From IMG/VR virus record IMGVR_UViG_3300030490_000001: a stretch of 64,000 nt of DNA. One strand, given 5' to 3'. Position numbers and translations under genes: made by a program. The stretch is from a virus. Every line of letters begins with the position of its first letter. The first letter of the stretch is position 1. Shown here piece by piece: positions 1,111 to 62,096 of this stretch. The notes below the pieces were generated by a model. It saw nothing but the letters and a program-made list of their open reading frames with translations, ran no database searches and had not been told where the DNA came from.

Positions 1111-1120
1111 TGTCACGACT
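1111..1120 (-). promoter_or_regulatory. TCGTGAC-core motif site 1
   Basis: Reads ttgatcaAGTCGTGACAatgcg on the minus strand. There are 34 nt to ATG 1076. TGATCAA abuts it. Confidence 0.6.
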
Positions 1121-1261
1121 TGATCAAAAACAAACAAGAGGGAATATCGTTACAAATCAACGGCTTGCTACGGTTAGATCGGTCTAGGTACGATCAAATA
1201 TGGTTAGCTACGGCTCGATACGGCTCAAATAATTCATCGATCTGCTCAACTTAACGTTTCT

Positions 1262-1716
1262 TTACAAAAGGGGGACGCTATCCAGAACGTCCCCCCTCCT
1301 GTCCCCCTGATTGTCCCCCTCAAATTCGGTCATCCTCTCTCTCTATCTATCTATTTCTATTAGAAAAGAAGAAGAAGAAGAAGAGAGAGGGGGACAAAGG
1401 GGACGGTAAATGTAGATATAGCCCCCTGTAAGAAAATGGGGGGGGGGAGGGGGTCTATGGGCAGGGTGTCTATGTATCCGGTGATGAGTACCCCCTCCCC
1501 CCCCCTCTTTTTCTCTCTATGAAATTGGCTGCGGGAGCGTCCCCCCCGTCCCCTTTGTCCCCTTTGCAATGTTTTCAATGGCTTATGGGTGCACGGCGAG
1601 GGGGACGCACTTTGCCCCGTCCCCCTGCGTACCCCTCCATAACCCCTGATTTTGTAACAAAACTGTCATAAAACGTCCCCCTGGGCGTCCCCCTCTGCGT
1701 CCCCCTCCCCTGTTTT
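1262..1716. repeat. structured non-coding block: GTCCCC(C) iterons, (GAA)5 homopurine run, G10/C9 inverted repeat (candidate origin or master control region)
   Basis: See the dedicated finding. I count 14 GTCCCC copies, 10 forward and 4 reverse, including three at a 12-bp period (1675, 1687, 1699). A 33-nt all-purine run spans 1362-1394. G10AG5T (1438-1454) faces AC5TC9 (1490-1505). Confidence 0.7.
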
Positions 1717-1726
1717 GGTCGTGACA
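1717..1726 (+). promoter_or_regulatory. TCGTGAC-core motif site 2
   Basis: Reads ttttgGTCGTGACAccacc. There are 15 nt to ATG 1742, and no SD. Confidence 0.6.
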
Positions 1727-1741
1727 CCACCATGACGACCC

Positions 1742-2245
1742 ATGGGAACCAAACCACACATCACACCCCGGACGCCGGGCTCGACGCCCTGGCGCGCATC
1801 AACTCTGCGCGACCGAGTCACCGGTGCACTGACCCGACTGAGTCCGGCGACCCGCGATGAGTTGGCCGCGTACACCGGCGATCCGCGTACGGAAGTCGAC
1901 GCCCTTATTAATGAGTTGCTGGTCGACGGCCTGGTCGTCCCGGTGCTCGACCGCTACCGCTACAAGTCTCCGCGCGAGCGATACGAGCGCCAGGTCACCC
2001 TGCATGACGGCACTGTTGTCGGGTCATGGTCGCCGGAGTGGAACACCGAACTTGAGGGCCGCGCCGTGCTGCGCATGCCCACAAAGATGCACCGCCAGGG
2101 ATACCTGATTCGCGTTCGAGAGAGGCGCGGCGACGCGAGGGCGAACGCGATGGAGGAGCTGTTACTGCGGATCTTCCGTTCCTCCCGCGCTGCCCGTGAC
2201 CCCGCCGGTGAGTCCGCCATGGACTCATCCCATGGCTCCGAATAA
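1742..2245 (+). CDS. hypothetical early protein
   Basis: 167-aa ORF, the first plus-strand gene after the structured non-coding block. Motif site 2 ends 15 nt before the ATG, and there is no SD. Confidence 0.5.
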   Translation: MGTKPHITPRTPGSTPWRASTLRDRVTGALTRLSPATRDELAAYTGDPRTEVDALINELLVDGLVVPVLDRYRYKSPRERYERQVTLHDGTVVGSWSPEWNTELEGRAVLRMPTKMHRQGYLIRVRERRGDARANAMEELLLRIFRSSRAARDPAGESAMDSSHGSE

Positions 2246-2290
2246 CTAAACCACGTCGTTTCATAAACCCCCTTCCCATAGGTCGGGGGA

Positions 2291-2330
2291 TATGATCAAA
2301 TTTGATCAAGTTAATCATATTTGATCAATA
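2291..2330. promoter_or_regulatory. GATC-centred palindromic operator cluster upstream of gene 2345
   Basis: GATCAAATTTGATC is a perfect 14-bp palindrome at 2294-2307. ATCATATTTGATCAA follows at 2314-2328. Confidence 0.55.
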
Positions 2331-2344
2331 GAAGGGGCAACACC

Positions 2345-5502: not shown

Positions 5503-5536
5503 GCAATCAAATTTGATACATGATCAAATTAGATCA
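5503..5536. promoter_or_regulatory. GATC-centred palindromic operator cluster
   Basis: ATCAAATTTGAT is a perfect 12-bp palindrome at 5506-5517. TGATCAAATTAGATCA follows at 5521-5536. Confidence 0.5.
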
Positions 5537-5830
5537 GCGCGACGGACTGACCTCGCGCCCCATCCTCGATAACGAATGGAATCACCGTGAAGAAACTTGT
5601 GCTTGTCGATATTGCTTTGGTCTATACCGCTGCACTTGAGCGTGATGGGAAGTCTAGCCACACCCGCGCGCCCTCCGCCAATCATGCGCCACGACATACG
5701 CCCCACCGAGTGCGTTCGGTGAGCTACTACCGCCCCATGCACCAAAGCGGGAGGAAGCAGACCACTTCGGTGAGGCGCCTCTAAACCTCGCCTCGAACAG
5801 GTTACTGGATACGTTTTTGCACACGCCAAA

Positions 5831-5840
5831 AGTCGTGACG
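5831..5840 (+). promoter_or_regulatory. TCGTGAC-core motif site 3
   Basis: Reads gccaaaAGTCGTGACGccatag. There are 33 nt to GTG 5874. Confidence 0.6.
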
Positions 5841-5873
5841 CCATAGTACCCCGACCAATTAGAGGGGTACACC

Positions 5874-7451: not shown

Positions 7452-7461
7452 AGTCGTGACC
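7452..7461 (+). promoter_or_regulatory. TCGTGAC-core motif site 4 (orphan, with no co-oriented gene downstream)
   Basis: Reads ggttaAGTCGTGACCatagc. A half-copy GGCGTGACACC follows at 7471-7481, then the alternating Pu-Py tracts, then the 3' end of the convergent primase gene. Confidence 0.5.
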
Positions 7462-7502
7462 ATAGCATCAGGCGTGACACCCTCATGAAGTGAATGTATG
7501 GC

Positions 7503-7561
7503 TACACGTGTGCGCGCCTGCGGACGCGCGCATGTGCGCATGCGTGTGCGCGCGTATGTAT
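7503..7561. repeat. two perfect alternating purine-pyrimidine tracts (15 nt and 38 nt; Z-DNA-prone)
   Basis: 7503-7517 reads tacacgtgtgcgcgc. 7524-7561 reads acgcgcgcatgtgcgcatgcgtgtgcgcgcgtatgtat. I checked the alternation base by base. Confidence 0.8.
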
Positions 7562-10526: not shown

Positions 10527-10967
10527 CTACTTGTTCACCGCGCCATTGAAGTCGCGGACTAGCCCTTGTGCTTGCTCGGGCGATGATGCAAACCCGGCGA
10601 TGCCGCCGGCCCCGCAGATCTGCTCGATGAAATTTTTCTGTTCCTTGCGCTTGGTGCCGCCGGTGGAGTTCTTGGTCTCGATAGCCGTGTAGATGGCGAC
10701 CCTTCGGCCGACCAACTCTGGCGTCACGACTATGGACGTCCATCCTTGCAGGTCTGACGCGCCCTTCAATGCGTCACCGGACGGGGTCGAGAATCCAATC
10801 GCAATGGAGCGCGCGGCCTTGATCACGACCGATCCATCAGTGAGCTGTATCACGCCGTCAGGGCCTAGGCCGGAGATCCAGCCGCGCCCGGTGTTGAGGC
10901 GAAAGAGTCTGGTGCCGAGGTGCGCGACGGCACCCCACACCATGCGCATGACGTTGTTCTCTTTCAC
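10527..10967 (-). CDS. VRR-NUC domain nuclease
   Basis: 146 aa. GASDLQGW ... AIETK fits the D..(D/E)xK pattern and size of VRR-NUC proteins. Confidence 0.7.
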   Translation of the reverse strand: MKENNVMRMVWGAVAHLGTRLFRLNTGRGWISGLGPDGVIQLTDGSVVIKAARSIAIGFSTPSGDALKGASDLQGWTSIVVTPELVGRRVAIYTAIETKNSTGGTKRKEQKNFIEQICGAGGIAGFASSPEQAQGLVRDFNGAVNK

Positions 10968-11407
10968 AGATCGGTATCCGCAATGGTGTAGTGGCGCGGG
11001 TTCTTGTCCGCGTACTGCGCGCGCAGTTTTGGCATGAGCGACTCGAATCGCGCGCGGAGATCCATGTAGGCATCGATCCGGCTTGGCGGCCGATCATCCG
11101 TCAGCTTGCCGGAGTGCTTGGCCTCGATCAGGATGTTGATACACGCCAGCGCGTTAGCGAGATGGGGCGTACCGTCCGTGGGATCGTCTTCCTGGCCTTC
11201 CCACCATGAGTCAATGTGGCGGCTCAGTGCAGATACGTAGATCGATGCACGAGCACCTGCGACGCGGTAGTTGTGCGCGCCGTACTTGATGTTTCCGAGG
11301 TAGTGCGCTATCGCCTGGTAGAGCTTGACGATCGGGGAGACGAGATGCATCGGTGCTTTATCGATCGCGATGGCGTCCTTAGGGTTGAGCAGATCGGTGT
11401 CTTTCAT
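10964..11407 (-). CDS. DUF5664-like dATP/dGTP pyrophosphohydrolase-domain protein
   Basis: ORF trimmed to ATG 11407 (MKDTDLL..). The pattern DKAP..L.P...........G..KYG..NYR....A.....SAL.RH...WW.G..DDP.DG.PHLANALAC...LIE matches my memory of that family. Confidence 0.6.
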   Translation of the reverse strand: MKDTDLLNPKDAIAIDKAPMHLVSPIVKLYQAIAHYLGNIKYGAHNYRVAGARASIYVSALSRHIDSWWEGQEDDPTDGTPHLANALACINILIEAKHSGKLTDDRPPSRIDAYMDLRARFESLMPKLRAQYADKNPRHYTIADTDL

Positions 11408-12048: not shown

Positions 12049-12531
12049 CTAGAATGGGATCTCATCGTCGTCGAAGGCGCCGCCGCTCGACTGCTGACTC
12101 CCGCCCTGCTGCTGGCCGCTGGTGCGCTGCTGCTGGCCTCCATTATTGGTGTCACGACTTCCGTTGCCGCCGGAGTTTCCGCCGCTGCGCTGACCATCAT
12201 CCTTGCTGCCGAGCATCTTCATTTCGTGGCACACCACCTTCGTGGTGTAGCGCTCGATGCCTTCCTTGTCAGTGTACTTCTCGGTCTCGTTGCGACCCTC
12301 CAGGTACACCAGCGAACCTTTCTTGAGGTACTCGCCGCAGATCTCGGCCAACTTGCCCCATATGACGATGCGGTGCCATTCGGTCTTTTCCTGCTTGTTT
12401 CCCTGCTTGTCTTTCCACTTATCGGAAGTGGCGACGCTGAAATTCGCGACGGCGTTGCCGTTGCTGATGAACTTCACTTCCGGGTCGTTGCCGAGGCGTC
12501 CTACAAGGATGGTTTTGCTCATTGATGACAT
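12049..12531 (-). CDS. ssb: single-stranded DNA-binding protein
   Basis: ORF trimmed to ATG 12531 ([18 protein letters not shown]..). It has an OB-fold SSB N-terminus, a Gly/Gln-rich linker and the acidic tip DDDEIPF. Confidence 0.9.
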
Positions 12532-14240: not shown

Positions 14241-14286
14241 CAAAAAAATAGGCCGGAGCCCCTGCTCAGGGGCCTACCGGCCTATT
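14241..14286 (-). terminator. strong hairpin plus T7 (minus-strand rho-independent terminator, possibly bidirectional)
   Basis: ATAGGCCGG..CCGGCCTAT forms a 9-bp outer stem with an inner GCCCCTG/CAGGGGC stem. It is flanked by A7 on the plus strand, which is T7 on the minus strand. It lies between motif site 5 and the helicase start. Confidence 0.7.
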
Positions 14287-14290
14287 TGAA

Positions 14291-14300
14291 TGTCACGACT
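14291..14300 (-). promoter_or_regulatory. TCGTGAC-core motif site 5
   Basis: Reads ctcaaaaaaAGTCGTGACAttcaa on the minus strand. It starts 16 nt after the stop of the HTH gene, and the terminator hairpin follows before helicase ATG 14186. Confidence 0.6.
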
Positions 14301-14316: not shown

Positions 14317-14559
14317 TTATCGCTTACGGGCTTCCGCTTTCTTATGGGCGACGATCACCTCTTCCATGGTGTCGATGATCTCGATCGTCTTAGGCAACTT
14401 GCGACGCCATCGATCCGGCGTAGCGCGTGAGATGCCGGCACGTGCGCATACTTTCGTCAGGTTGATGCCGGCCCTATTTGCGTCGTCAATGATTGTTTCC
14501 AGCCGTTCGAGAAAGACCTCCCCGAACGTTTCTCTCTTGGCTTGCGGCTCCTTGCTCAT
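14317..14559 (-). CDS. helix-turn-helix DNA-binding regulator
   Basis: 80 aa. INLTKVCARAGISRATPDRWRRK looks like an HTH. The gene is divergent from the operator-rich 14560-14774 region. Confidence 0.6.
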   Translation of the reverse strand: MSKEPQAKRETFGEVFLERLETIIDDANRAGINLTKVCARAGISRATPDRWRRKLPKTIEIIDTMEEVIVAHKKAEARKR

Positions 14560-14618
14560 GAAAGGAATCCCCTTGGGTTGTTTGCGTTGCCGGATGGTAT
14601 CCGCAAGCCTGCGTGGTA

Positions 14619-14738
14619 GTCAAATTCGATCAAAAGGTATCAGCTAAAAAGTCGTGACACTACAAATTCACCCCTAAGTTCGGTGGCTAGATGATCAAAA
14701 ACATGTTGATCTTTTTTGATCAACTAAATATGATCAAT
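14619..14738. promoter_or_regulatory. operator-rich divergent control region (HTH gene versus recombination operon)
   Basis: TCAAATTCGATCAAAA precedes motif site 6. After it come TGATCAA 14692, TTGATC 14706, TTGATCAA 14716 and TGATCAA 14731. Confidence 0.55.
14650..14659 (+). promoter_or_regulatory. TCGTGAC-core motif site 6
   Basis: Reads gctaaaaAGTCGTGACActaca. There are 115 nt to ATG 14775, with GATC operators in between. Confidence 0.6.
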
Positions 14739-14774
14739 GCCACACGAACAAAACCCAAAGGGGGAATAGCTTAG

Positions 14775-18208: not shown

Positions 18209-18396
18209 ATCGCCAATTCCTGAGTCCGCAGCAAGTTGTAGAACGGTACGGAGAAAACGCGCCATCCATCCATACCCTGGAGAGCTGGCGCCGCTCAGCA
18301 AACAAAGGGATGGGGCCTGACTTCGTCAGGCTTGGTCGAAAGGTCGCCTACCCGATGGACAAGCTTATTGAATGGGAAAATCGGGGAAATCCCTGA
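18205..18396 (+). CDS. AlpA/excisionase-like HTH protein
   Basis: 63 aa. LSPQQVVERYG......L..WR......P.FV.LGR.V.Y fits the AlpA/Xis-type winged HTH pattern. Confidence 0.55.
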   Translation: MNRQFLSPQQVVERYGENAPSIHTLESWRRSANKGMGPDFVRLGRKVAYPMDKLIEWENRGNP

Positions 18397-21927: not shown

Positions 21928-21937
21928 AGTCGTTACA
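21928..21937 (+). promoter_or_regulatory. TCGTGAC-core motif site 7 (variant AGTCGTTACA)
   Basis: Reads ttcaaaAGTCGTTACAcaaag. It starts 15 nt after the integrase 1 stop, followed by a hairpin plus T8 and then GTG 21990. Confidence 0.45.
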
Positions 21938-21948
21938 CAAAGCTATCA

Positions 21949-21989: not shown

Positions 21990-22220
21990 GTGTCTGACGC
22001 CGATATTGCCCAAGTTCATGAACTGCGCGACTGGGAGCGCAACAACGCCCCTCGCAAACCAATTCCGAAATATGCTCCGAACGACTATTCATATGGACCC
22101 GAGTCCTGCGTCGAGTGTGGTGACGATATGCCGGATCTGCGACGCGAGATGGGCGTGCTCAAGTGCACTGATTGCACCAGCGCAGTCGAGGCACGCGCAA
22201 AGCAGTGGGCGCCCGCGTAG
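21990..22220 (+). CDS. TraR/DksA-family C4 zinc-finger protein
   Basis: GTG 21990 has AAGAGAG upstream. CVECGDDMP....R......C.DC is typical of phage TraR/DksA-like proteins. Confidence 0.65.
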   Translation: MSDADIAQVHELRDWERNNAPRKPIPKYAPNDYSYGPESCVECGDDMPDLRREMGVLKCTDCTSAVEARAKQWAPA

Positions 22221-24156: not shown

Positions 24157-24205
24157 CCGCTACCTCGTTTAATGCCGTGATTGAAACAGTTCAGGTAGAT
24201 TGTGG

Positions 24206-24215
24206 CGTCACGACA
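24206..24215 (-). promoter_or_regulatory. TCGTGAC-core motif site 8
   Basis: Reads aggaaTGTCGTGACGccaca on the minus strand. It starts 3 nt after the stop at 24219, with 49 nt to ATG 24156. Confidence 0.6.
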
Positions 24216-28898: not shown

Positions 28899-28918
28899 CT
28901 CCAGATTTATTTCTGGAG
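28899..28918 (-). other. hairpin that sequesters the SD of the 28430-28891 gene
   Basis: CTCCAGA tttatt TCTGGAG forms a 7-bp stem. On the mRNA the 3' arm runs UCUGGAGG, so 4 of the 5 SD bases are paired. UUUU follows. Confidence 0.5.
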
Positions 28919-28923
28919 TTTGG

Positions 28924-28933
28924 TGTCACGACT
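28924..28933 (-). promoter_or_regulatory. TCGTGAC-core motif site 9
   Basis: Reads catcAGTCGTGACAccaaa. It starts 7 nt after the stop at 28941, then comes the SD-sequestering hairpin, then GTG 28891. Confidence 0.6.
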
Positions 28934-33421: not shown

Positions 33422-33434
33422 GCCGTGATTTTCA

Positions 33435-33444
33435 TGTCACGACA
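33435..33444 (-). promoter_or_regulatory. TCGTGAC-core motif site 10
   Basis: Reads cttaTGTCGTGACAtgaaaatcacggcATG. There are 13 nt to ATG 33421, and no SD. Confidence 0.6.
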
Positions 33445-39438: not shown

Positions 39439-39460
39439 TGCCTGTAGTGCATTAGCCTAA

Positions 39461-39470
39461 TGTCACGATT
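39461..39470 (-). promoter_or_regulatory. TCGTGAC-core motif site 11 (variant AATCGTGACA)
   Basis: Reads tctAATCGTGACAttagg. It overlaps the tube gene stop codon. The terminator hairpin follows, then ATG 39392. Confidence 0.5.
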
Positions 39471-42779: not shown

Positions 42780-42793
42780 GCACACAATGATCG

Positions 42794-42803
42794 CGTCACG
42801 ACT
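42794..42803 (-). promoter_or_regulatory. TCGTGAC-core motif site 12
   Basis: Reads caaaaaaaAGTCGTGACGcgatc. There are 14 nt to ATG 42779. It lies in the 60-nt divergent gap shared with the plus-strand gene 42840. Confidence 0.55.
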
Positions 42804-42839
42804 TTTTTTTGAATCGGTCGTGAAGGTAAAGTCACTCAC

Positions 42840-45416: not shown

Positions 45417-45436
45417 TTTGGTTGACCATCAATGCC

Positions 45437-45446
45437 GGTCACGAAC
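45437..45446 (-). promoter_or_regulatory. TCGTGAC-core motif site 13 (variant GTTCGTGACC)
   Basis: Reads tgaGTTCGTGACCggcat, directly after the stop at 45447. The hairpin plus T7 follows, then ATG 45377. Confidence 0.45.
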
Positions 45447-49103: not shown

Positions 49104-49117
49104 AGCAACAATTTTCG

Positions 49118-49127
49118 TGTCACGACT
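49118..49127 (-). promoter_or_regulatory. TCGTGAC-core motif site 14
   Basis: Reads gcaaataAGTCGTGACAcgaaaattgttgctATG. There are 14 nt to ATG 49103, and no SD. Confidence 0.6.
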
Positions 49128-49766: not shown

Positions 49767-49774
49767 GAGTTTCA

Positions 49775-49784
49775 TGTCACGACT
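49775..49784 (-). promoter_or_regulatory. TCGTGAC-core motif site 15
   Basis: Reads gagaataAGTCGTGACAtgaaa. It overlaps the stop codon of the 1271-aa gene by 1 nt. The hairpin follows, then ATG 49735. Confidence 0.6.
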
Positions 49785-52700
49785 TATTCTCCCAACATCT
49801 CCAACGCCTTTTGCAGCGTGTTGGATTTCTGCATGGCGGTCACGATCTTGTCGATCGCCGCGTTGATGCGCTGACGTTCCTCGCCCTCGGGAAACGGCTT
49901 CTGATCGCCAAAGAGCGGATCACGGTAATACTTGTTGTCGGCCTTAGCTGAGAGGTAGTCATTGCGACGACCCTTATCGGCGAGGCGGTCCTCGATCCAG
50001 CCCTGGAACGCGCGCGCGGCCATCTCTTCGGTCGTGGCCCAGTATTTCGCGCTACCGCCGTCCAGCTTGGTCGCCTCCAGTGCGAACGACGACATGGGCT
50101 TGCCACTATGCACCTTGATCTCACCGCCCTCGGCGTTGCCGCCAAAGTGCGCGTGCGCGAGAGTCTTCCAATCGCCGGAGATCTTTTTCGTGCGGCGGGA
50201 CGCGCTCGATTCCTTGCCGCCCTCGGTGTTGAAGTGCCGGTCCAATCGCTGCACGGCATCGTTCACGTTGGCGGACTCCTTGATGATGGCGAGCGGCCCG
50301 GTCTTTGTGAAGCTCTCCCGACTCATGACGCGCTTTGCTTGTGCGTGATCCTGTGCCGTGTAGGCGTGCGTGTTGGATATGCGCAGGCCGCCCTCCCACA
50401 TCACGTGACGGAAATCGGCGAACGCGTCGCGCAGCTCACCCGGCGGCAACGCCTCGGGGGTTTCGGTGGCAAAGGTGTCCTTGTTGACGGCCTGGACCGT
50501 CTCAGCCTCGGCGATCATGTTGTCCAGCGCGTGGAACCATTCATGACCCAGTGCGCCGCCGCCTCCCAGCTTGGTGAGGTTGATCACGCGCTGCACGGGT
50601 TCATAGTGAGCGCGGGCCGCGCCGCCGAAACCAGCATTGCCGGTGCCGCGCGCGCCAAACGCCAGCGCAAGGCGGCCGTTCAGCGCGATGGTTTTGTCAT
50701 CGGCACCGAGCAAGTCAGCTAGATCCGCGAAAGCGGCAGCAGACTGCTCCGTGTGGAACTTCGCGCTGACCGGGTCGCGCAGTACCCAGTTGCCCGACTG
50801 CACGTCGCGCAGGCCGAACGCATCCTTGAGTTCCATGGTCGATTCGGGAGTGACGGTACGGCCGCCGACGCGCTCATAGGAGTCCGCTACCTGGAGCTGG
50901 AACCGTTGCCCCTCTTTGGTGATCTTCGGTGCACGCGTGATCTCTTTCTCTGCCCACGACCAATCCTTGACCTTGCCGGCCCTGGCGGACGCCATGTGAT
51001 TGGCGAATGCATCGGAACCCTTGGCGCGGCGATAGCGCAGGACGCCGATGAAGCGATCGCCCATGGTTTGCCACGCGCGGTGCAGCGGGTTTTCGGTCTT
51101 GTTGCGCACGTGCGCCGCGAGCGCAATGGCGCGTTGCTGGCTGGCGATGGACTGCCGGCGCGAGCTGATCTCGTCGCGACGCGGCTTGCTAGAGTGGAGC
51201 TTTTCACTCCAGGCTTCCCATGTCTTGTCATGCTCAGCCTTTGCATCAGCGAGTGCAGCGTGGTGTTCTGGCTTGATCTCCCAACCACGGCGCTTACGCT
51301 TACCGATCTCATGCTCGGCCGCGTACTGAACGGCCTTCTGTTTTTGTGCCAGCGCATAGAGCGGGTCAGCCTCCGCATCGAGTGCGCGGTATTCGCGGAA
51401 CAGGTCGTGGTTTTCCTGCGCCAACTCCTCGTACACCGCCGATTCCTCGGCGTTGAGGATGGTGCCGTCGTACTCCTCTTGCAGATCGGACAGAACCTCA
51501 CTTACCTCCTCGGTAGTCTTGCATGACTCCAGCCGATCGCGCAGCGTCTGCAGGCCGAGGGTGTAATCCTTCCGGGCCTGCGGGCTTTCATGGCTCGGCT
51601 CCGTGCCGATGGCCGCGTAGATTCGGTCGATGATGAATCCAGTGCCCGGGTCCATGCCGCCGTCGCGCAGCGCAGTCCAATCCACTGCGCCGAACAGATT
51701 CGACTTGGTGATCAGGTCTTTCGCTTCACGCGGGTTCTGCTCGATCTGCTCCCAGTTGATCGCCGTGACGTATACGCGCGCGCCCTCGGCCTTGGCGACC
51801 TTGATGACCTGCTGCGCGGTAGCGAGCTCTTTGCGCGAGCCGGACACGTAACCGGTATCGGCGTAGCGGTAATTCTTACTGTTGGGATTGTCGACGTCAT
51901 CGATGTCCTGCGATGCCGGCTCGACCTTCGGCCTGGATGCTCCGCGCTTCACCTTGCGCTCGCGCAGGCCAAGCTCGCCGAGTACGTCATCGCGGGTGAG
52001 GCCGAGCGCATTAGCCAGGCCATCGATCACCGCGACCGGCTGCGACTTCACGCCAGGCGTATCGAGGCCCCCGTGAAGCTTGATCGCTTCCTGCAGTGTC
52101 GCCGCGAGCTGCTCACGACCTCCCATCTGCTCGATCTTGTCGCGCAGCTTCTGGAGATTCATCTCATGCTGGTCGGGCTCTGTAGCGGGCACTTCATCCT
52201 CACCAGCGACATCGTGCGCCACCTCACGCAGCTTGGCCTTTGCTTCATCGCTGTGCGGGTCTTTCGCGAGCGCGTCGGCAAGCTCCTGGCGCTGCACGGA
52301 CTCGGCATCGGTCGGCGCTGCCTTGGCTTGCTCCTGCTTGTGCCAGCGGCCGTCGCGGAACACGAGCGTGCCATCAGCGCCATCCTTGGTTTCTCCATCC
52401 TTTGGGCCATCGGGATCGGAACTGGGATCGTCTTTCTCTGCGCTCTCCACATCATGGCCGTGCCGTTTCGCGAATGCGACGGCCTCGGTGGCCGTGTCAA
52501 ATGTGTTTTTCTTCGGCCCGAACCGCTCGCCGAACTGCTTTCCGGCCTGGATCTGCTCAGGGGTCGCATCCTTGTAGTGGATTTCATCCGGCACGCGACC
52601 GACGTAACCGAATTTGCCATTCGGGAACTTGACCACGTGCAGGCCTAGGCCACCATTCTTGTCCAGGGTCGGCACGACCGGCCCCTTGCTTGCAGCAGCG

Positions 52701-53599
52701 GCAGCGGCATCCGCTTCGCTCAAGGTTCCATCCTTCGACTTCGCCTGCATGGCCGCGTGAGCAGCGATGGCACGCTGACGGCTGGCCTCGCTTGCCGTTT
52801 CAACGGCAGCAGCCAGTGCATCAATGGCATCTTGCTGCGATGTGAGATCGTACATCTGCTCGATGTCATCCGACTGCGGGATGACGAACCAACCGCTCCG
52901 ATTGCGATCGATGATGCCGCCATGTACCGGATTGGTGTTGGTGATCAAGCCATCGACGCTACCAGTCCAGCCATCGGGCAGCTTGCGCGGCTCCGCCTTG
53001 GGTTCTGGCTTCGGCTCAGGCCTTTTCTCTGGCTCAGGAACGGGCGCCGGCTCGGCCACCTTCGGCTCCTCTTTCGGCTCCTCATGTGCAGGCAGATGCT
53101 TCTCGCGGATAAACCATCCGCCGTCCTTTTTGAACGTGTACGGATCGATGTCCGTGGCCGAATCCTTGTCGAGGTCGCGACGCACGATGCCGCGCAGGGT
53201 CTTGCCCTTGCCGGTGACGTGCTCGACGATCTCGTGCTTGTCTGGCTCAGCCTTTGGTGCGGTCTTGGCCTCGTCGTGCATACCGAGGCGTTCCATGATG
53301 GCGTTCGGCTCGATGCCGTCAATGTGCGCCATGGCGTCGATCAGCTTGGCGCGCTGCTCAGGCTTCATGTCCGACAGCTCATCGCGCATGCGAGCCGCGC
53401 CGCCATGCTTCTCGATGAATGAGTCAAGGCGCGTCGGCTCAGCTTTCTGCGACGCGGCATGCGCGTGCGCCTGGTGCGGCTGCATCGACACTTTCTGCAT
53501 GCGCATGTGAGGCTTCACATACGTGCCATCGGGATTGTAATGACCGGCCACTTGGACCGGCATACTGATGAGCGGCGAGGACTTCGTGAAAAATATCAT
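49784..53599 (-). CDS. large polyvalent virion-associated protein with a zincin-like HExxH motif
   Basis: 1271 aa, multi-domain, with Lys/Glu/Pro-rich linkers. LGGGGALGHEWFHALDN contains HEWFH. It lies in the head module next to MuF, as described for phage polyvalent proteins. Confidence 0.7.
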   Translation of the reverse strand: MIFFTKSSPLISMPVQVAGHYNPDGTYVKPHMRMQKVSMQPHQAHAHAASQKAEPTRLDSFIEKHGGAARMRDELSDMKPEQRAKLIDAMAHIDGIEPNAIMERLGMHDEAKTAPKAEPDKHEIVEHVTGKGKTLRGIVRRDLDKDSATDIDPYTFKKDGGWFIREKHLPAHEEPKEEPKVAEPAPVPEPEKRPEPKPEPKAEPRKLPDGWTGSVDGLITNTNPVHGGIIDRNRSGWFVIPQSDDIEQMYDLTSQQDAIDALAAAVETASEASRQRAIAAHAAMQAKSKDGTLSEADAAAAAASKGPVVPTLDKNGGLGLHVVKFPNGKFGYVGRVPDEIHYKDATPEQIQAGKQFGERFGPKKNTFDTATEAVAFAKRHGHDVESAEKDDPSSDPDGPKDGETKDGADGTLVFRDGRWHKQEQAKAAPTDAESVQRQELADALAKDPHSDEAKAKLREVAHDVAGEDEVPATEPDQHEMNLQKLRDKIEQMGGREQLAATLQEAIKLHGGLDTPGVKSQPVAVIDGLANALGLTRDDVLGELGLRERKVKRGASRPKVEPASQDIDDVDNPNSKNYRYADTGYVSGSRKELATAQQVIKVAKAEGARVYVTAINWEQIEQNPREAKDLITKSNLFGAVDWTALRDGGMDPGTGFIIDRIYAAIGTEPSHESPQARKDYTLGLQTLRDRLESCKTTEEVSEVLSDLQEEYDGTILNAEESAVYEELAQENHDLFREYRALDAEADPLYALAQKQKAVQYAAEHEIGKRKRRGWEIKPEHHAALADAKAEHDKTWEAWSEKLHSSKPRRDEISSRRQSIASQQRAIALAAHVRNKTENPLHRAWQTMGDRFIGVLRYRRAKGSDAFANHMASARAGKVKDWSWAEKEITRAPKITKEGQRFQLQVADSYERVGGRTVTPESTMELKDAFGLRDVQSGNWVLRDPVSAKFHTEQSAAAFADLADLLGADDKTIALNGRLALAFGARGTGNAGFGGAARAHYEPVQRVINLTKLGGGGALGHEWFHALDNMIAEAETVQAVNKDTFATETPEALPPGELRDAFADFRHVMWEGGLRISNTHAYTAQDHAQAKRVMSRESFTKTGPLAIIKESANVNDAVQRLDRHFNTEGGKESSASRRTKKISGDWKTLAHAHFGGNAEGGEIKVHSGKPMSSFALEATKLDGGSAKYWATTEEMAARAFQGWIEDRLADKGRRNDYLSAKADNKYYRDPLFGDQKPFPEGEERQRINAAIDKIVTAMQKSNTLQKALEMLGE

Positions 53600-53625: not shown

Positions 53626-53635
53626 CTCATTGTCG

Positions 53636-53645
53636 TGTCACGATT
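53636..53645 (-). promoter_or_regulatory. TCGTGAC-core motif site 16 (variant AATCGTGACA)
   Basis: Reads gtgtAATCGTGACAcgaca. It is part of the palindrome TCGTGtCACGA. The hairpin follows, then ATG 53599. Confidence 0.5.
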
Positions 53646-53661: not shown

Positions 53662-54186
53662 CTAGGCGGCGCTACTCATGAACAGGATAACGGTGGACAT
53701 ACCCAATCCTTTGATCATTGCAGGGGCTTCATTGGTATCCTTCACCTTGCGCACGAACTCATCCACCGGCATCGCCGTAATGGGTCCAAGGAAGCGCGGG
53801 TCGCTGTAGTGCTGCAGATAGGCTGCGCGGGCATCCACGTCGTTTTCAAAGCCGATCATGCATTTGTCTTCATCGTAGTTCGCCCAGTCGCCCGCCTTGC
53901 GCTGGTGCACGATGTAGACCATTGGTGCGGCCAGATTCGGCCCTAGGTAGACGTCAACTTCGTCGCCGTCGACCGCCTCGGATCGCTTGATATAACCGTA
54001 GTCGTGGAGCATCTTCGTCTGCCAGCCTTTGCCGGTGCGAGTGCTGCCAACGGGGTTCTCGATCGCGATGTCCAGGCCCTTCCACTTCACGACGGGCTTG
54101 CGGTAATTACCGGCGCGGGCCTGGGCGTCAGTGGGTTTGACCCACACCTCGCCGCGCACGTGCGACTTAGTCAGCATGCTTGGCAC
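53662..54186 (-). CDS. inorganic pyrophosphatase-like domain protein
   Basis: 174 aa. IENPVGSTR and DGDEVDV match the family I PPase signature D-[SGDN]-D-[PE]-[LIVMF]-D-[LIVMGAC] as I remember it. Confidence 0.5.
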   Translation of the reverse strand: MPSMLTKSHVRGEVWVKPTDAQARAGNYRKPVVKWKGLDIAIENPVGSTRTGKGWQTKMLHDYGYIKRSEAVDGDEVDVYLGPNLAAPMVYIVHQRKAGDWANYDEDKCMIGFENDVDARAAYLQHYSDPRFLGPITAMPVDEFVRKVKDTNEAPAMIKGLGMSTVILFMSSAA

Positions 54187-55321: not shown

Positions 55322-55334
55322 GCAGGGAGGTTAC

Positions 55335-55344
55335 CGTCACGATA
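55335..55344 (-). promoter_or_regulatory. TCGTGAC-core motif site 17 (variant TATCGTGACG)
   Basis: Reads attttttATCGTGACGgtaacctccctgcATG, directly after the portal terminator T-run. There are 13 nt to ATG 55321, and no SD. Confidence 0.5.
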
Positions 55345-57228: not shown

Positions 57229-57241
57229 ATGTAAATGGTGC

Positions 57242-57251
57242 TGTCACGACT
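57242..57251 (-). promoter_or_regulatory. TCGTGAC-core motif site 18 (portal side of the divergent pair)
   Basis: Reads catAGTCGTGACAgcaccatttacatATG. There are 13 nt to portal ATG 57228, and no SD. Confidence 0.65.
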
Positions 57252-57279
57252 ATGACGAAGGTCAATGTGTCGCGCCATT

Positions 57280-57289
57280 TGTCGTGACA
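57280..57289 (+). promoter_or_regulatory. TCGTGAC-core motif site 19 (plus side of the divergent pair)
   Basis: Reads catTTGTCGTGACAgcacg. There are 32 nt to ATG 57322. GTCGTGACAGCAC is a perfect 13-bp inverted repeat of site 18. Confidence 0.65.
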
Positions 57290-57321
57290 GCACGATGCAC
57301 CCCACACCAAAGGGGTGACGC

Positions 57322-58128: not shown

Positions 58129-58337
58129 CCAGCGCCACGCAGCAGCAACACGAAAAGCTTTGGACGCCGGAGGACTGCGCGGAGTATCTAACCATAGCTC
58201 GGTGGACGTTCGTAAACCGCATCAGCAAAATGCCGACGTTCCCAAAGCCGCGTGTTGAGATTGGCCGGCGCATGCGTCGCTGGCATCCCGATGACGTGCG
58301 AGACTGGTCGTATCGATCCGGACGAAAGACGGCCTAA
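58125..58337 (+). CDS. xis: excisionase / AlpA-like HTH protein
   Basis: 70 aa. W.PEDCAEYL.I.RWTF.NRI...P.FPKP......RRW is AlpA/Xis-like. It is convergent with integrase 2 and overlaps it by 4 nt. Confidence 0.6.
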   Translation: MTSATQQQHEKLWTPEDCAEYLTIARWTFVNRISKMPTFPKPRVEIGRRMRRWHPDDVRDWSYRSGRKTA

Positions 58338-59305
58338 TCGAGCTTGCCGGCCATGTCGGTGGCCGACTCGCGGTAGTAAATCAGCAACGATTTCAGGTCA
58401 CGATGACCAATCACGCGCGCAAGCTGCAACACATCAAGCTTTTTCGAGAGGCGCCACACGCCCTCGGCGCGCGTATCGTGAAAGTGCAAGTCATCTAGCG
58501 CTGCCTGGTCGCGCCACTTACGCCAGTTTGCATCGCGCTGGCCGTCATCCATCATAAAGCACGGCTGCCCGGCATCGCGCGGAAGTGCTTCCAGAATCTG
58601 AACGGCAAACGACGACAGCGGAACATCCCGCTTGTCGCCGTTCTTTGTTTTTGGAAAATGCACATATCTCGCATCAAGGTGAACGTGAGGCCACGTAAGC
58701 CCAACAATCTCACCAGACCGCGCCGCCGTCTCGATCGCGAACAGGAACATTAAGCCGATACGGTTCGTGATTGTCACCGCCGCTAGGCTTTCCCCTATAC
58801 CGAACGCATGACGCACCCTTGCTATTTCGTCGGCAGTGATACGCCGCCCACGGCTCTCAGGTGATGCCGGACCCTTGAACCCCGTGAAGGGGTTGTGTGT
58901 CATCCAGTTCCATTCCTCGCGGCAGCGGCGGAACATCCCACGAATCAGGTTGAGCTCGCGCCGGATGGAGGCGTCTTCAACCGACTTTGCCCGGCGGTCG
59001 CGGTAGTCGATCAAGTCATCCTTGTTCACGTCAGCGAGGCGCTTTTTGGCTATGGGATCATCCATCAGTCGCTTGCACCGGGAAATGTCAGACCGGCTCT
59101 TATCTTCGTTCACGTAGAGCTTGTGCAACCGACTTAGAGCGTCGCCTACCAGCATTGTCACGGCCGGGGCCTTGCGCCCTTCGGCCTCAGTCATCATCGC
59201 CCACTGTGACGCTTCTGACTTGGTGTCGAACACCCGTCCTTGACGCTCGCCGCCGATCAGCACCTGCGCGCGCCAGCGTTTGCCGATCTTGAAGATGCTC
59301 GCCAT
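58334..59305 (-). CDS. int: tyrosine integrase 2
   Basis: ORF trimmed to ATG 59305 (MASIFKIGKRWRAQV..). It has catalytic-region hallmarks: ARSGEI, HFHDTRAEG and GHRDLKSLLIYY. Confidence 0.85.
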   Translation of the reverse strand: MASIFKIGKRWRAQVLIGGERQGRVFDTKSEASQWAMMTEAEGRKAPAVTMLVGDALSRLHKLYVNEDKSRSDISRCKRLMDDPIAKKRLADVNKDDLIDYRDRRAKSVEDASIRRELNLIRGMFRRCREEWNWMTHNPFTGFKGPASPESRGRRITADEIARVRHAFGIGESLAAVTITNRIGLMFLFAIETAARSGEIVGLTWPHVHLDARYVHFPKTKNGDKRDVPLSSFAVQILEALPRDAGQPCFMMDDGQRDANWRKWRDQAALDDLHFHDTRAEGVWRLSKKLDVLQLARVIGHRDLKSLLIYYRESATDMAGKLD

Positions 59306-59402: not shown

Positions 59403-59668
59403 GTGCTTGTTTCTTCGTTGATTTGCGGTGTTTTGCAACCTACCGCAATTTACAAATGGTGCCCAAGAGGGGCAACGCAACGATCCGCTATAAGCCATTC
59501 TAAGTATGTTTTGTGCAATTCATGTGCAGTGTTTCAAAGTTACCGAGAAGGCTCCATAGTTCGGGTCCCCGCCAGGGACCCTGCAGTCAGACGCTCTATA
59601 GCGACTTCGCATTGCGCAGCAACACCACATATAGATGTATGTCAGCGCAGGAAGCCTGCCGATCATCG

Positions 59669-60901
59669 TCAGGCTTCCTGCGCAAGCACATGGGCATGGT
59701 GATGACGCCCTACTTTCCCATACACAGATCTCCCTAAGCGGATACCCGGCCTCTCGATGAAAAGATAGGTAGCGCAGGAAAACAGGGCTACGCAAAGAGC
59801 CGTCATGGCCGCGATAGACCAAAATTCCGCTGGCGATCGGTTAGCCGCTACTCCAAGCACTCCCGGAAGAAAGATCGTTGATAGCACCAGGCCATGCATC
59901 AAGTAGATGCTGTAGCTGGCATGCCCAAGGCGAACGGCACCAGTCACATGAAGTAGGCGGAACAGGGAAGATCCCGACGCGACAAGCGCGAAGAACCCAC
60001 CAAGAAAGATGACGCCGTACACCGAAAATGAATCATGCCCAAGGTAGAACGCTTCCAGCAGAGACAGCAGAGCTACGACCGATCGAACTTCACCATCCCC
60101 ATGGATCTTCGGCATCATCCGCAAAAATGATGCCGTCAGCATGCCAACCAAGAAAAATCCGACATAGAAACAATATCGTGACTGAGTTTGGTGGCCAATG
60201 ATCAGCGCTAGGGCTAGGCCGACGCATATCGCAGCCCACGCATGCCGACAAGGAGCCAGCAGGGCCAGAGCCGGCAGTGACACATAAAAGGTCCACTCGT
60301 AGAACAGCGTCCACGTCTGGCCGACGACCGACATGCTGTGCGTGTCATCAAGAAATGGCGGCGGTAGCTGATAGGCGCCTAATGCTAGCCACCTCCATGC
60401 CTGCCCTATCGCCATCCTTAATGATACGGCGATATGGAAGTCAGCTCTGACGAGTACGAAAACGAAATATGCAGCGATCAGCGACCAGTACAGGGGAACG
60501 ATGCGAAAGAATCGATTGACGTAAAGCTCAGCCCATTTTGGCCTTCCGCCTTTTTCGAGCAACTTACCCCAGAAAAGAAAGCCGGTGATCATGAAAAACA
60601 CCGCTACGCCGAAGCTTCCTACGTAGGAAAAGAACGGTGATGGAGGTAGTGCGACGATGCCGGTCGTTGCAGCGATGCGCCTTATGGATGTGTGCTGGGT
60701 CAAAACTGCCAGCGCCAAAAAAAACCTAAGACCGTCAAGGTTGCTGATACGGCTACCAGAAGCATGCGGCTCCTGGTCAAGCGCTGAAAACAGTGGGAGC
60801 GAGAAAATCCCAACAAGCAGCGCAGCGATGAGAAATGCCGGCCATACCGAGTAATAGTCCATGAGATTTTCCGTACTCTCCAAAGGAGAGGATGATGCCA
60901 C
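59669..60901 (-). CDS. acyltransferase family 3 membrane protein (OafA/Oac-like lysogenic conversion candidate)
   Basis: 410 aa and polytopic. It has the N-terminal signature R..NLDGLRFFLALAVLTQH. GC looks lower than in the surrounding phage genes. The start may instead be ATG 60862. Confidence 0.85.
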   Translation of the reverse strand: MASSSPLESTENLMDYYSVWPAFLIAALLVGIFSLPLFSALDQEPHASGSRISNLDGLRFFLALAVLTQHTSIRRIAATTGIVALPPSPFFSYVGSFGVAVFFMITGFLFWGKLLEKGGRPKWAELYVNRFFRIVPLYWSLIAAYFVFVLVRADFHIAVSLRMAIGQAWRWLALGAYQLPPPFLDDTHSMSVVGQTWTLFYEWTFYVSLPALALLAPCRHAWAAICVGLALALIIGHQTQSRYCFYVGFFLVGMLTASFLRMMPKIHGDGEVRSVVALLSLLEAFYLGHDSFSVYGVIFLGGFFALVASGSSLFRLLHVTGAVRLGHASYSIYLMHGLVLSTIFLPGVLGVAANRSPAEFWSIAAMTALCVALFSCATYLFIERPGIRLGRSVYGKVGRHHHAHVLAQEA

Positions 60902-60990
60902 ATGGCTGAAAAAATCGCCCCAGCCGAAGATGGTGACATGCGCCTAATCCGTTCGCGCCCGCTGAGACGCTACACCGATACGATCGCCCA

Positions 60991-61209
60991 ATGTCCAGGA
61001 CGATCCACAAAGAGACCTTCGGCCCACCCGGCGCGTGCGACGCCTGCGGGAGGCCATGCTGCGTCATGCAGCAGGTAGGCATCCAGTGCTACCACTGTCA
61101 TGCCGGCGTGTTCATGCATCGGAAATTCTGGCGCTTCACCTATATAGATGGAGACATGATTGCCACGCCCAAGGACGAAGTGACCGATGCTGACCTGATG
61201 AATAATTAG
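60991..61209 (+). CDS. small Cys/His-rich protein
   Basis: 72 aa with CDACGRPCC and CYHCH. Confidence 0.35.
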   Translation: MSRTIHKETFGPPGACDACGRPCCVMQQVGIQCYHCHAGVFMHRKFWRFTYIDGDMIATPKDEVTDADLMNN

Positions 61210-61257
61210 TGTGTATTAGTGTGTACACATTTCGATTTTGTGTGTACAATGCACACC
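61206..61257 (+). promoter_or_regulatory. probable hicAB promoter/operator
   Basis: TTAGTGTGTA occurs twice in tandem (61206-61225), overlapping the palindrome TGTGTACACA. A TACAAT -10-like hexamer is at 61245-61250, with TGTACA 17 nt upstream. Confidence 0.5.
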
Positions 61258-61434
61258 ATGAACAGCGCAGACCTCATCAAACTACTCAAGGCCAACGGCT
61301 TCGCTGTCGTCAGCATCCGGGGCAGCCACCACAAGATGCGCAACGCTGCGAACGTAACGGTGATCGTCCCGCATCCCAAGCATGATCTGCAGAAGGGAAC
61401 GGTTTCCTCGATCATGAAGCAAGCCGGACTCTAA
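61258..61434 (+). CDS. hicA: HicA mRNA-interferase toxin
   Basis: ORF trimmed to ATG 61258. MNSADLIKLLKANGF..VSIRGSHHKM.... is the canonical HicA pattern, and the protein is 58 aa. Confidence 0.85.
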   Translation: MNSADLIKLLKANGFAVVSIRGSHHKMRNAANVTVIVPHPKHDLQKGTVSSIMKQAGL

Positions 61435-61483
61435 GGTGCTGGCGCTACACAGAAAGAAACACTGCTTTTAGAAAGAACGGAGA

Positions 61484-61891
61484 ATGACCATGCGCTACCC
61501 CATCGCTATTGAAATCGGTGACGAAAAGACCGCCTATGGCGTGACCGTACCCGATCTGCCTGGCTGCTTCTCTGCCGGCGACACGCTCGATGAAGCAATC
61601 AGCAACTCCGAGGAGGCAATGCTCCTTTGGTTTGACGAGGATGAGCCCGTAGCGCCGCCGGCCGCATCAAAGATCGAAGACCTCCGCAAGCGCAAAGAGT
61701 TTCGGGACCGTATCTGGGTTCTCGTGTCGGTGGACTTGTCCAAGCTCAACGACAAGGCCGTGCGCATCAACGTGACGATTCCTGAGCGCATCCTGCACAA
61801 CATCGATGCCCACGTAGGCTCTATTGGCGAGTCTCGCTCAGGCTTCCTCACTCGCGCGGCCATGGCAACCATGGCGACCGAGCACGCGTAA
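61484..61891 (+). CDS. hicB: HicB antitoxin (with a C-terminal RHH-like DNA-binding part)
   Basis: YPIAIEIGDEKTAYGVTVPDLPGCFSAGDTLDEA is the canonical HicB N-domain. The C-terminal VTIPERIL..ID.......SRSGFL is RHH-like. Confidence 0.85.
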   Translation: MTMRYPIAIEIGDEKTAYGVTVPDLPGCFSAGDTLDEAISNSEEAMLLWFDEDEPVAPPAASKIEDLRKRKEFRDRIWVLVSVDLSKLNDKAVRINVTIPERILHNIDAHVGSIGESRSGFLTRAAMATMATEHA

Positions 61892-62086
61892 ACGCAAAAA
61901 ATCCCCCAGCCTAAGCCGGGGGCTAGTTCAAATTGCGTGCGCATGTGCTTCTGTAAACTGCGCCACCCTACCCAGCGACACTGCCGCCGCATCGGCGGCA
62001 TAAGTCCAGGCCGGACCAACTGGCCTGGCACTCCATCGGCCGCCACTCGCGCGGCTGATGCACATCACATGGGCTACCTGAATAAA

Positions 62087-62096
62087 AGTCGTGACA
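62087..62096 (+). promoter_or_regulatory. TCGTGAC-core motif site 20
   Basis: Reads gaataaaAGTCGTGACAccaga. There are 129 nt to ATG 62226, with a small hairpin and the TGATCAAAT inverted pair in between. Confidence 0.6.

Follow-up and report, generated by a model that had tools for sequence, protein, structure and literature searches.

The phage genome and its TCGTGAC copies

The stretch of viral DNA analysed here, IMG/VR record IMGVR_UViG_3300030490_000001 (64,000 nucleotides, referred to below as the window), comes from a temperate phage whose circular genome of 88,495 bp was assembled from overlapping, 100%-identical public contigs, and its intergenic regions carry many copies of an asymmetric element with the core TCGTGAC, which we consider here as a probable promoter. 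The phage is contractile-tailed: its genes encode a portal, a tail tube and a baseplate, as well as a terminase of the lambda-GpA type, a primase, helicases and an exonuclease; the sheath gene was identified via its homologue in the related phages Dolphis and PHB04. Within the metagenome collection, 102 indexed blocks include the portal protein. Some contigs carry the prophage form, inserted at the 3' end of a tRNA-Leu(GAG) gene adjoining secG (contig L002, 7688-7772), and the attachment core corresponds to approximately 59455-59472 of the window, beside the gene for a 323-amino acid (aa) integrase (58334-59305).

TCGTGAC occurs 37 times in the window, as compared with 11.8 ± 3.7 times in dinucleotide-shuffled sequence, and none of 100 shuffles reached 37; the longer form AGTCGTGACR, allowing at most one mismatch, is present in 34 copies versus 9.6 ± 3.0 expected. 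To locate the copies, we used a gene map based on codon-usage scoring that was checked against the gene calls on public metagenome contigs with the same sequence. Non-coding DNA, 7.2% of the window, holds 19 of the 37 copies (binomial p = 9e-13), where shuffled intergenic DNA yields 0.55 ± 0.76, and 18 of these 19 are co-oriented with the next downstream gene (p = 4e-5), the sole exception being an "orphan" at 7454. The remaining 18 copies, in coding DNA, represent only a mild excess over the 10.4 ± 3.3 found after synonymous-codon shuffling, so the signal is essentially intergenic. An initial reading made by eye from the letters of the window (the sequence-only reading) had listed 20 intergenic copies and named a codon-aware null model as a way to refute their bias; all 20 are present at the positions it reported, the sub-families of longer identity that it described among them are as it said, copies do lie right after stop codons (0-18 nt), and the synonymous-codon shuffle above is a null model of the kind it named.

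The copies also mark particular kinds of junction. Outward-pointing copies occupy the divergent junctions 1077-1741, 42780-42839, 57229-57321 and 78943-79143 (the last in full-genome coordinates), and others lie directly past terminators (7454 and 55342, and 10706 in PHB04), positions that would fit re-initiation sites. One target is non-coding: outside the window, a full copy of the motif is located ~230 nt upstream of a tRNA-Thr gene that is followed by a transfer-messenger RNA (tmRNA) gene. This pair, tRNA-Thr(TGT) and a permuted two-piece tmRNA of betaproteobacterial type (contig L005, 12890-13621; genome ~65,980-66,711), matches Rfam families RF01850 (98.6 bits) and RF04321 (124.8 bits) in its tmRNA, whose type points to a possible betaproteobacterial host; scanning the window itself for tRNAs and Rfam families gave no match.

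A -10-like pair follows the core in register with start codons

Aligned on the core, the intergenic copies have the consensus (A/T)(A/T)(A/T)G-TCGTGAC-R-n-n-A-n-n-(A/C)-T. When the first T of the core is taken as position 0 and copies are counted over the assembled 88.5-kb genome (28 intergenic, 22 coding), T is found at +14 in 25 of the 28 intergenic copies versus 6 of the 22 coding copies (p = 9e-6), and A at +10 in 24 versus 7 (p = 1e-4). The three bases that separate this A from the T equal the spacing of A-11 and T-7 in the -10 element of sigma70-type promoters, the two bases that are flipped out by the sigma2 domain of sigma70-type factors. The sequence-only reading had noted that no -10-like hexamer lies 15-19 nt after the embedded GTGACA; this is literally correct, but a -10-like A...T pair directly follows the core. 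The A-run that it saw ahead of the motif is likewise present in the window phage, as A or T at three positions before the G, but it is not conserved in relatives.

The pair stands at a fixed distance from several start codons. ATG begins exactly 6 nt past the T at sites 33442, 55342 and 57249 (the portal gene), 7 nt past it at 42801, 42818 and 49125, and 8 nt past it at 1719. In the cases checked, these ATGs were chosen independently by metagenome gene callers (33421, 42779, 49103, 55321 and 57228 in the window; 78942 in the genome). A transcript that begins 7 nt past T-7 begins at the A of the ATG, so a leaderless mRNA is predicted for these genes. The remaining sites have predicted leaders of ~19-40 nt, often with a hairpin (CCCC...GGGG) that includes the Shine-Dalgarno sequence. 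Numbered from the start predicted in this way, the element would consist of G-22, TCGTGAC from -21 to -15, R-14, A-11, A/C-8 and T-7, followed by an unconserved, G+C-rich discriminator of 6-7 nt and then by C-1 and A+1.

Nothing resembling a TTGACA-like -35 hexamer accompanies the pair: the positions around -35 to -30 are unconserved, both in the window phage and across its family. The TG of extended -10 promoters is also absent at -15/-14, where the invariant C of TCGTGAC and an A or G are found. With nothing conserved at -35 and no TG, the element is neither a -10/-35 nor an extended -10 promoter. Two other arrangements were considered and rejected. A plain sigma70 promoter with GTGACA as its -35 has nothing conserved 17 bp downstream, a position that in the leaderless class falls inside coding sequence, and a reading of the extracytoplasmic function (ECF) sigma type, with CGT or GTC as the -10, has no GGAAC-like element upstream.

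Conservation in related phages

Homologues of the portal protein with 52-72% identity were found in a Steroidobacter metagenome-assembled genome (MAG), in Microvirga lupini, in an Acetobacteraceae MAG, on 15 IMG/VR contigs and in cultured phages. The latter include Bordetella phage PHB04 (genus Phabquatrovirus) and the Pseudomonas phages Dolphis, Jeremy and Touem01, as well as Aeromonas ST4, Yersinia fHe-Yen8-01, E. coli ECML-606-1, Enterobacter phiT5282EW and Morganella Mecenats66. Ahead of the portal ATG in almost every one of these relatives lies TCGTGAC (or TCGTGAT, GCGTGAC or TCGGGAC) followed by N3-A-N3-T and N6-7; the element precedes the portal gene in the Steroidobacter MAG, Microvirga lupini, the Acetobacteraceae MAG, IMG/VR contigs, PHB04, Dolphis and ECML-606-1, where it is followed by a leader and not in the leaderless register. 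These loci have a G+C content of 53-68%, and the hosts of the phages with the element are alpha-, beta- and gamma-proteobacteria. A check of syntenic junctions, which the sequence-only reading had suggested, thus shows the motif kept at the same junctions, including those of PHB04, Dolphis and ECML-606-1. A pattern scan of IMG/VR returned at least 118 matching stretches and, among the matches listed, many are on contigs of 82-97 kb, which indicates a large family. Its members are Phabquatrovirus-like myoviruses, ~86-97 kb in size, with hosts among the alpha-, beta- and gamma-Proteobacteria.

The full pattern is matched at 138 sites in 17 genomes or loci. An ATG that opens an open reading frame (ORF) of at least 60 codons begins 6 nt past the T at 36 of these and 7 nt past it at 13 (49/138), and a second cluster of ATGs is seen ~23-37 nt past the T; by comparison, core copies that do not have the A/T pair show such an ATG at 6-7 nt in just 3 of 287 cases. 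We also applied a non-circular test in which sites were picked solely by TCGTGA and an ATG opening an ORF of at least 100 codons. The distance from core to ATG peaks sharply at 14-15 nt, with 51 sites as against 1-3 at most other distances, and at these 51 sites A is present at +10 in 49 and T at +14 in all 51, so that an A-11/T-7 pair stands 6-7 nt before the predicted start. G precedes the core in 45. Bacterial RNA polymerase prefers to start with a pyrimidine at -1 and a purine at +1, and C immediately precedes the A of the ATG in 43 of the 51.

We put the probability at about 0.8 that the element is a promoter with this geometry, that TCGTGAC is its upstream half and that it is used throughout the genome and across the family.

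Operator-like palindromes in the control regions

A second repeated motif, the palindrome TGATCAAATTTGATCA, is represented by 10 half-sites versus 1.6 expected. It clusters in the control regions 2293-2327, 5512-5540, 14620-14740 and 62148-62182, downstream of or beside TCGTGAC promoters, and is also found at 1121-1128. In the region 14560-14774 it overlaps a sigma70-like promoter, TTGACT-N18-TACCAT, ahead of the gene for an 80-aa helix-turn-helix (HTH) protein, and another, TTGATC-N17-TATGAT, ahead of the exonuclease operon. Similar GATCAA(A) sites are present in control regions of PHB04, Dolphis and several IMG/VR relatives. TGATCAAATTTGATCA is probably a classical repressor/Cro operator set.

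These palindromes bear on the possibility that the TCGTGAC copies are themselves stoperator-type sites, to which a monomeric immunity repressor binds at many intergenic positions to block initiation and elongation in the lysogen. The many asymmetric intergenic copies with an orientation locked to transcription (18 of 19) are what such a system would provide, and the phage is temperate, with an integrase and a prophage in tRNA-Leu beside secG. However, the core is invariant among relatives whose portals are 52-72% identical and whose hosts span three classes, where immunity sites would be expected to diverge, and isolates such as PHB04, which have just the family-wide integrase-like gene, keep it. 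The fixed register to A-11/T-7 and the ATG would serve nothing in a roadblock, and the separate TGATCAAATTTGATCA palindromes over sigma70-like promoters are the likelier repressor target. We regard a stoperator function as very improbable, and the precedent of mycobacteriophages L5 and Bxb1 to which the sequence-only reading had pointed does not hold up against these observations.

Candidate readers of the core

No Pfam match to an RNA polymerase or sigma factor was obtained for any called gene of the assembled 88.5-kb genome; the absence of a recognisable gene of either kind that had been remarked on for the window therefore extends to the remaining 24.5 kb. The annotations of Dolphis, of PHB04 and of the 41 kb of ECML-606-1 that were examined, most of which is labelled just hypothetical protein, list no gene of either kind.

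These results weigh on the idea that the phage encodes a non-canonical RNA polymerase of its own, either single-subunit and T7/SP6-like or of an unrecognised type, for which the element would serve as the promoter. Compact promoters at ~1 per 2.7 kb resemble those of T7-like genomes, GTGACAC is also found in the SP6 promoter, and many genes of the phage have no recognisable function. Yet the complete 88,495-bp genome contains neither a polymerase-like Pfam match nor an unexplained gene of the size needed, and none is annotated in the cultured relatives examined. The promoter architecture is also at odds with such an enzyme: in T7-type promoters conservation runs through the start, where the first base is G, whereas here positions -6 to -1 are unconserved and the predicted +1 is an A after C, and the A-11/T-7 spacing is a melting signature of the sigma70 type. 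A single-subunit polymerase, the other precedent offered initially, is therefore unlikely, and a phage polymerase of either type is the least probable of the explanations that we weighed.

Several proteins that are neither structural nor obvious enzymes are conserved across the window phage, Dolphis and PHB04. They are a 181-aa Cys-rich protein (531-1076), a 93-aa zinc ribbon (253-534), the 80-aa HTH protein (14317-14559), a 63-aa protein that by eye is AlpA/Xis-like (18205-18396), a 76-aa DksA/TraR-like zinc finger (21990-22220), a 430-aa integrase-like protein (20620-21912) and a 259-aa protein (42840-43619). Searches of ten family-conserved non-structural proteins against Pfam, PHROGs and NCBIfam returned just generic HTH, zinc-ribbon, DksA/TraR-like and integrase matches, and PDB sequence searches with three candidates gave no match. 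A phmmer search for weak similarity, using all proteins against the six-frame ORFs of Dolphis and PHB04, revealed no further conserved regulator.

The 181-aa/93-aa pair heads a leftward operon beside an iteron-rich putative origin and in PHB04 is preceded by what appears by eye to be a host-type extended -10 promoter, TGATAAAAT; its operon position and this host-type promoter make the pair a reasonable early-expressed candidate. An AlphaFold2 model of the 181-aa protein, built from a 9-sequence alignment, has a predicted local distance difference test (pLDDT) score of 65 and a predicted template modelling (pTM) score of 0.39, and Foldseek found no match to it in the PDB with an E-value below 1. 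The AraC-family regulators PHB04 gp48 and Dolphis gp100 were rejected as a universal reader, having no homologue in the window phage. The gene for the 430-aa protein is a second, family-conserved integrase-like gene, which isolates such as PHB04 and Dolphis carry as well. By eye, its product has a C-terminal motif (H...NY) resembling an intact tyrosine-recombinase box, and no support was found for it as a DNA-binding reader.

Might the host holoenzyme need no such partner? It could read the element by itself as a "super-extended -10" in any proteobacterium, with phage proteins merely favouring -35-independent promoters in the manner of gp39 of Thermus phage P23-45. RNA polymerase with RpoD is indeed the sole reader common to alpha-, beta- and gamma-proteobacterial hosts, and the DksA/TraR-like protein, of a polymerase-binding type, is conserved in the family, its gene being flanked by the integrase-like gene on one side and by the lysis and tail genes on the other. 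There is, however, a C at -15 and no TG at -15/-14; we know of no E. coli sigma factor with a consensus like the TCGTGAC element, although E. coli phage ECML-606-1 keeps the motif; and a lysogen would not survive ~30 constitutive promoters, some of them driving lysis and tail genes, unless something more were needed. We consider it unlikely that the host enzyme suffices.

Three observations instead suggest that a phage-encoded factor is needed: phages of all three proteobacterial classes (alpha, beta and gamma) have the same 8-bp block, this block is not known to correspond to the consensus of any E. coli sigma factor, and the ~30 promoters, lysis and tail genes included, must be silent in the lysogen. 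That a dedicated factor of this kind reads the core has, in our judgement, somewhat better than even odds. More tentatively, and with the odds slightly against it, the family may encode a specificity factor of a new kind, with no relation to sigma factors, MotA/AsiA or Ogr-type proteins as they are known, which would read the 8-bp element from -22 to -15 beside a minimal -10, would serve mostly leaderless late genes and would operate in cultured hosts as varied as E. coli, Pseudomonas, Bordetella, Yersinia and Aeromonas. Its candidates are the small HTH proteins or the conserved early pair made up of the 181-aa Cys-rich protein and the 93-aa zinc ribbon.

Individual sites in the window

The predicted leaderless class includes the minus-strand elements at 33428..33443 (full, GTCGTGACATGAAAAT), 6 nt before the Prodigal-called ATG at 33421, and at 55328..55343 (ATCGTGACGGTAACCT), which lies directly past the T-run of a terminator and 6 nt before the ATG at 55321. 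The portal gene is preceded by the full minus-strand element at 57235..57250 (GTCGTGACAGCACCAT), whose T is 6 nt from the ATG at 57228, and the divergent partner of this predicted promoter, the full element at 57281..57296 on the plus strand (GTCGTGACAGCACGAT), has a 19-nt leader with a CCCC/GGGG hairpin. Two elements are arranged back-to-back at 42787..42802 (minus strand, full, GTCGTGACGCGATCAT), with a Prodigal-called ATG at 42779, 7 nt past the T, and at 42817..42832 (plus strand, a variant, GTCGTGAAGGTAAAGT), with the ATG of gene 42840-43619 also 7 nt past the T; both are predicted to be leaderless, and the variant was not among the 20 copies listed initially. At 49111..49126 (minus strand, full, GTCGTGACACGAAAAT) the leaderless ATG is again 7 nt past the T, at 49103, where a 296-aa product is called, homologous to the head maturation proteases that PHB04 and Dolphis encode. 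The full plus-strand element at 1718..1733 (GTCGTGACACCACCAT) is near-leaderless, with the ATG of gene 1742-2245 8 nt past the T.

Longer predicted leaders follow a second group. The full element at 5832..5847 (plus strand, GTCGTGACGCCATAGT) leads through a predicted 20-nt leader with a CCCC/GGGG hairpin into a GTG at 5874. On the minus strand, the full element at 24199..24214 (GTCGTGACGCCACAAT) is 5 nt past a stop codon and has a 36-nt leader to gene 23794-24156, whereas that at 28917..28932 (GTCGTGACACCAAACT) has a leader of 19 nt and a hairpin that includes a GGAGG Shine-Dalgarno sequence. Two further minus-strand sites flank the gene for a 1271-aa LPD1-domain protein: the element at 53629..53644 (ATCGTGACACGACAAT) lies ahead of it, with a 23-nt leader and hairpin, and the full element at 49768..49783 (GTCGTGACATGAAACT) lies 1 nt past its stop codon and has a 26-nt leader with a hairpin. 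The head-gene block contains this protein, of the large polyvalent-protein type (49784-53599), and a neighbouring InPase-domain protein (53662-54177). The giant proteins at the same position in relatives differ, being a methyltransferase plus helicase in PHB04 and an ADP-ribosyltransferase in Dolphis.

Some plus-strand sites lie in regulatory surroundings. The element at 14651..14667 (GTCGTGACACTACAAAT), in a divergent control region, has its T one base late and is upstream of TGATCA operators and the exonuclease operon; the full element at 62088..62103 (GTCGTGACACCAGACT) is followed by the operator pair TGATCAAA...TTTGATCA before gene 62226-62627; and the variant at 21929..21944 (GTCGTTACACAAAGCT), the single core mismatch among the copies listed initially, is ahead of the DksA/TraR-like gene 21990-22220.

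Other sites are associated with terminators. On the minus strand, the full element at 14284..14299 (GTCGTGACATTCAAAT) precedes the helicase operon and has the stop codon of the 80-aa HTH gene on one side and a strong terminator on the other, and the element at 39454..39469 (ATCGTGACATTAGGCT) overlaps the TAA of the tail-tube gene and is followed by an intrinsic terminator before gene 39021-39392. A terminator also follows the weak minus-strand copy at 45430..45445 (TTCGTGACCGGCATTG), which has no A/T in register and is probably non-functional. The orphan at 7453..7468 (plus strand, full, GTCGTGACCATAGCAT) lies directly past a terminator and points at the primase gene, which is convergent with it and faces it by its 3' end, and at an alternating GC/GT tract. 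A variant plus-strand element at 7471..7486 (GGCGTGACACCCTCAT), 18 nt after it, scores 14.8 bits with a position weight matrix, and the ATG 7 nt past its T opens a doubtful 58-codon ORF. The tract itself, an alternating purine-pyrimidine stretch at 7500-7560 that is Z-DNA-like, is downstream of the copies at 7454 and 7472 and opposite the primase 3' end, and could mark an antisense or small RNA.

Three minus-strand copies are atypical in sequence or position. The core copy at 1104..1119 (GTCGTGACAATGCGCC), upstream of the 181-aa Cys-rich gene 531-1076, has no A/T in register, and its core appears by eye to overlap a sigma70-like TTGTTT-N17-GACAAT. The full-pattern copy at 10715..10730 (GTCGTGACGCCAGAGT) is inside ORF 10527-10967 and may serve the primase gene as an internal promoter or be there by chance, and the copy at 12143..12158 (GTCGTGACACCAATAA(T)), inside the SSB gene with its T one base late, is of uncertain status.

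Other features of the genome

The gene-free stretch of 665 bp at 1077-1741 carries ~15 iteron-like GTCCCCC/GGGGGAC repeats together with AT-rich and simple-repeat tracts, and looks like a replication origin. The equivalent regions of relatives have other iterons (GGATACC in PHB04, GGTAACC in Dolphis). It is flanked by the genes for the conserved Cys-rich and zinc-ribbon proteins and for a winged-helix/DUF7696 protein. A dGTP_diPhyd_N domain protein (10964-11407) and a nucleotide-modification-associated protein, Nmad5 (genome 74249-74818; contig L009, 6374-6943), are accompanied by DNA methyltransferases and may form a DNA base-modification module. Finally, an acyltransferase_3 gene (59669-60862) and a HicA/HicB toxin-antitoxin pair (61249-61891) adjoin the integrase and are likely lysogenic-conversion or defence cargo.

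Discussion

The observations on sites, register and relatives lead us to propose that the TCGTGAC element is a bipartite promoter. The A-11/T-7 pair and the start geometry suggest that a sigma70-type RNA polymerase holoenzyme of the bacterium melts the -10 part, while the GTCGTGAC block would stand in for the missing -35 as the specificity determinant. Its reader is probably a phage-encoded adaptor or a very divergent sigma-like protein; alternatively, the host holoenzyme might read GTCGTGAC after modification by a phage RNA-polymerase-binding protein. For about one-third of the promoters the A of the ATG would be the first base of the mRNA, which makes the genes leaderless; most others would have leaders of ~20-30 nt, often with a hairpin at the 5' end that takes in the Shine-Dalgarno sequence. 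The element would then be a new variation within a known kind, the phage-specific promoter classes for the host polymerase. The view with which the analysis began, of an orientation-locked transcription signal that is not a plain -35/-10 sigma70 promoter and whose reader is not recognisable, stands; only its two precedents do not.

Several points weigh against this proposal or are not accounted for by it. The start site is placed by the ATG register and the C-1/A+1 bias, and leaderless mRNAs are uncommon in Proteobacteria. The copies at 14298 and 39468, and the weak copy at 45444, are upstream of intrinsic terminators, which transcripts from them would hit at once; a "promoter inside terminator" bypass at 14298 was considered and rejected, since the truncated RNA still folds a hairpin beside the U-run (-16 versus -41 kcal/mol). 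The copy at 1118 does not have the -10 register, and the proposal does not account for the two full-pattern copies inside ORFs (10729 and 12157) or for the orphan at 7454, directed at the end of the convergent primase gene. The same motif precedes early-looking, replication and late genes, which would leave silencing in the lysogen unexplained unless the activating factor were itself repressed. The reader protein was not found, and the best-placed candidate, the 181-aa Cys-rich protein, has a low-confidence model with no fold match.

Phage promoter classes such as those of T4 (middle and late), T7, N4 and P23-45 each revealed a new way of reprogramming RNA polymerase. The unusual points here are that the specificity block would sit in the spacer, at -22 to -15, that the core is invariant in the phages of three proteobacterial classes and that the element is often coupled to predicted leaderless translation, which is rare in Proteobacteria. 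With no recognisable reader, a new transcription factor or a very divergent sigma is likely, and the question is directly testable in that cultured relatives infect E. coli and Pseudomonas putida. In practical terms, the motif would allow start-codon calls to be corrected and transcription units to be defined in hundreds of metagenomic phage genomes, and it could provide a compact orthogonal promoter-factor pair for several hosts. No description of the TCGTGAC element turned up in the searchable literature on the motif, on leaderless phage promoters or on the named relatives, and the paper on Mecenats66 does not mention promoters.

Comparison with known systems

Compactness, a locked orientation, high number and intergenic location are shared with T7/SP6-type promoters, and there is the partial SP6 resemblance noted above (GTGACAC); the differences are that no polymerase gene is recognised, the start-proximal bases vary, transcription would begin with an A after C, and a sigma-type A-11/T-7 pair is present. 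T4 late promoters, which consist of TATAAATA at -10 alone and are read by gp55, a highly divergent sigma-like protein that is barely detected by standard profiles, are likewise -35-less and placed in many copies before late genes. They differ in sequence and extent, and no gp55, gp33 or clamp-loader system was found in the window phage.

The Cluster A stoperators of L5, Bxb1 and TipsytheTRex number over 20, are asymmetric and ~13 bp long, and lie in promoters or short gaps between genes, their orientation being correlated with transcription (PMC9283540). Copy number, asymmetry and orientation lock are the same, but stoperators are repressor sites that halt transcription in the lysogen, whereas the TCGTGAC element has a fixed A-11/T-7 pair and start-codon register. 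The middle and late promoters of Thermus phage P23-45 are -35-independent, relying on the -10 region and the bases just upstream, and redirect the host polymerase (PMC3950348). The TG at -15/-14 that defines these extended -10 promoters is absent from the element, in which the conserved block is 8 bp long, reaches to -22 and is invariant across hosts.

The functionally closest known system is the T4 middle promoter. Both are bipartite, with a host-type -10, no -35 hexamer and a phage box upstream, and both occur in many copies before co-oriented genes. In T4 the MotA box is centred at ~ -30 and acts with MotA/AsiA sigma appropriation (PMC3950348); in the TCGTGAC element the box has another sequence and abuts the -10 region at -22 to -15, and many of the transcripts are predicted to be leaderless. 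No MotA or AsiA homologue was detected among the conserved candidate proteins with Pfam or PHROGs.

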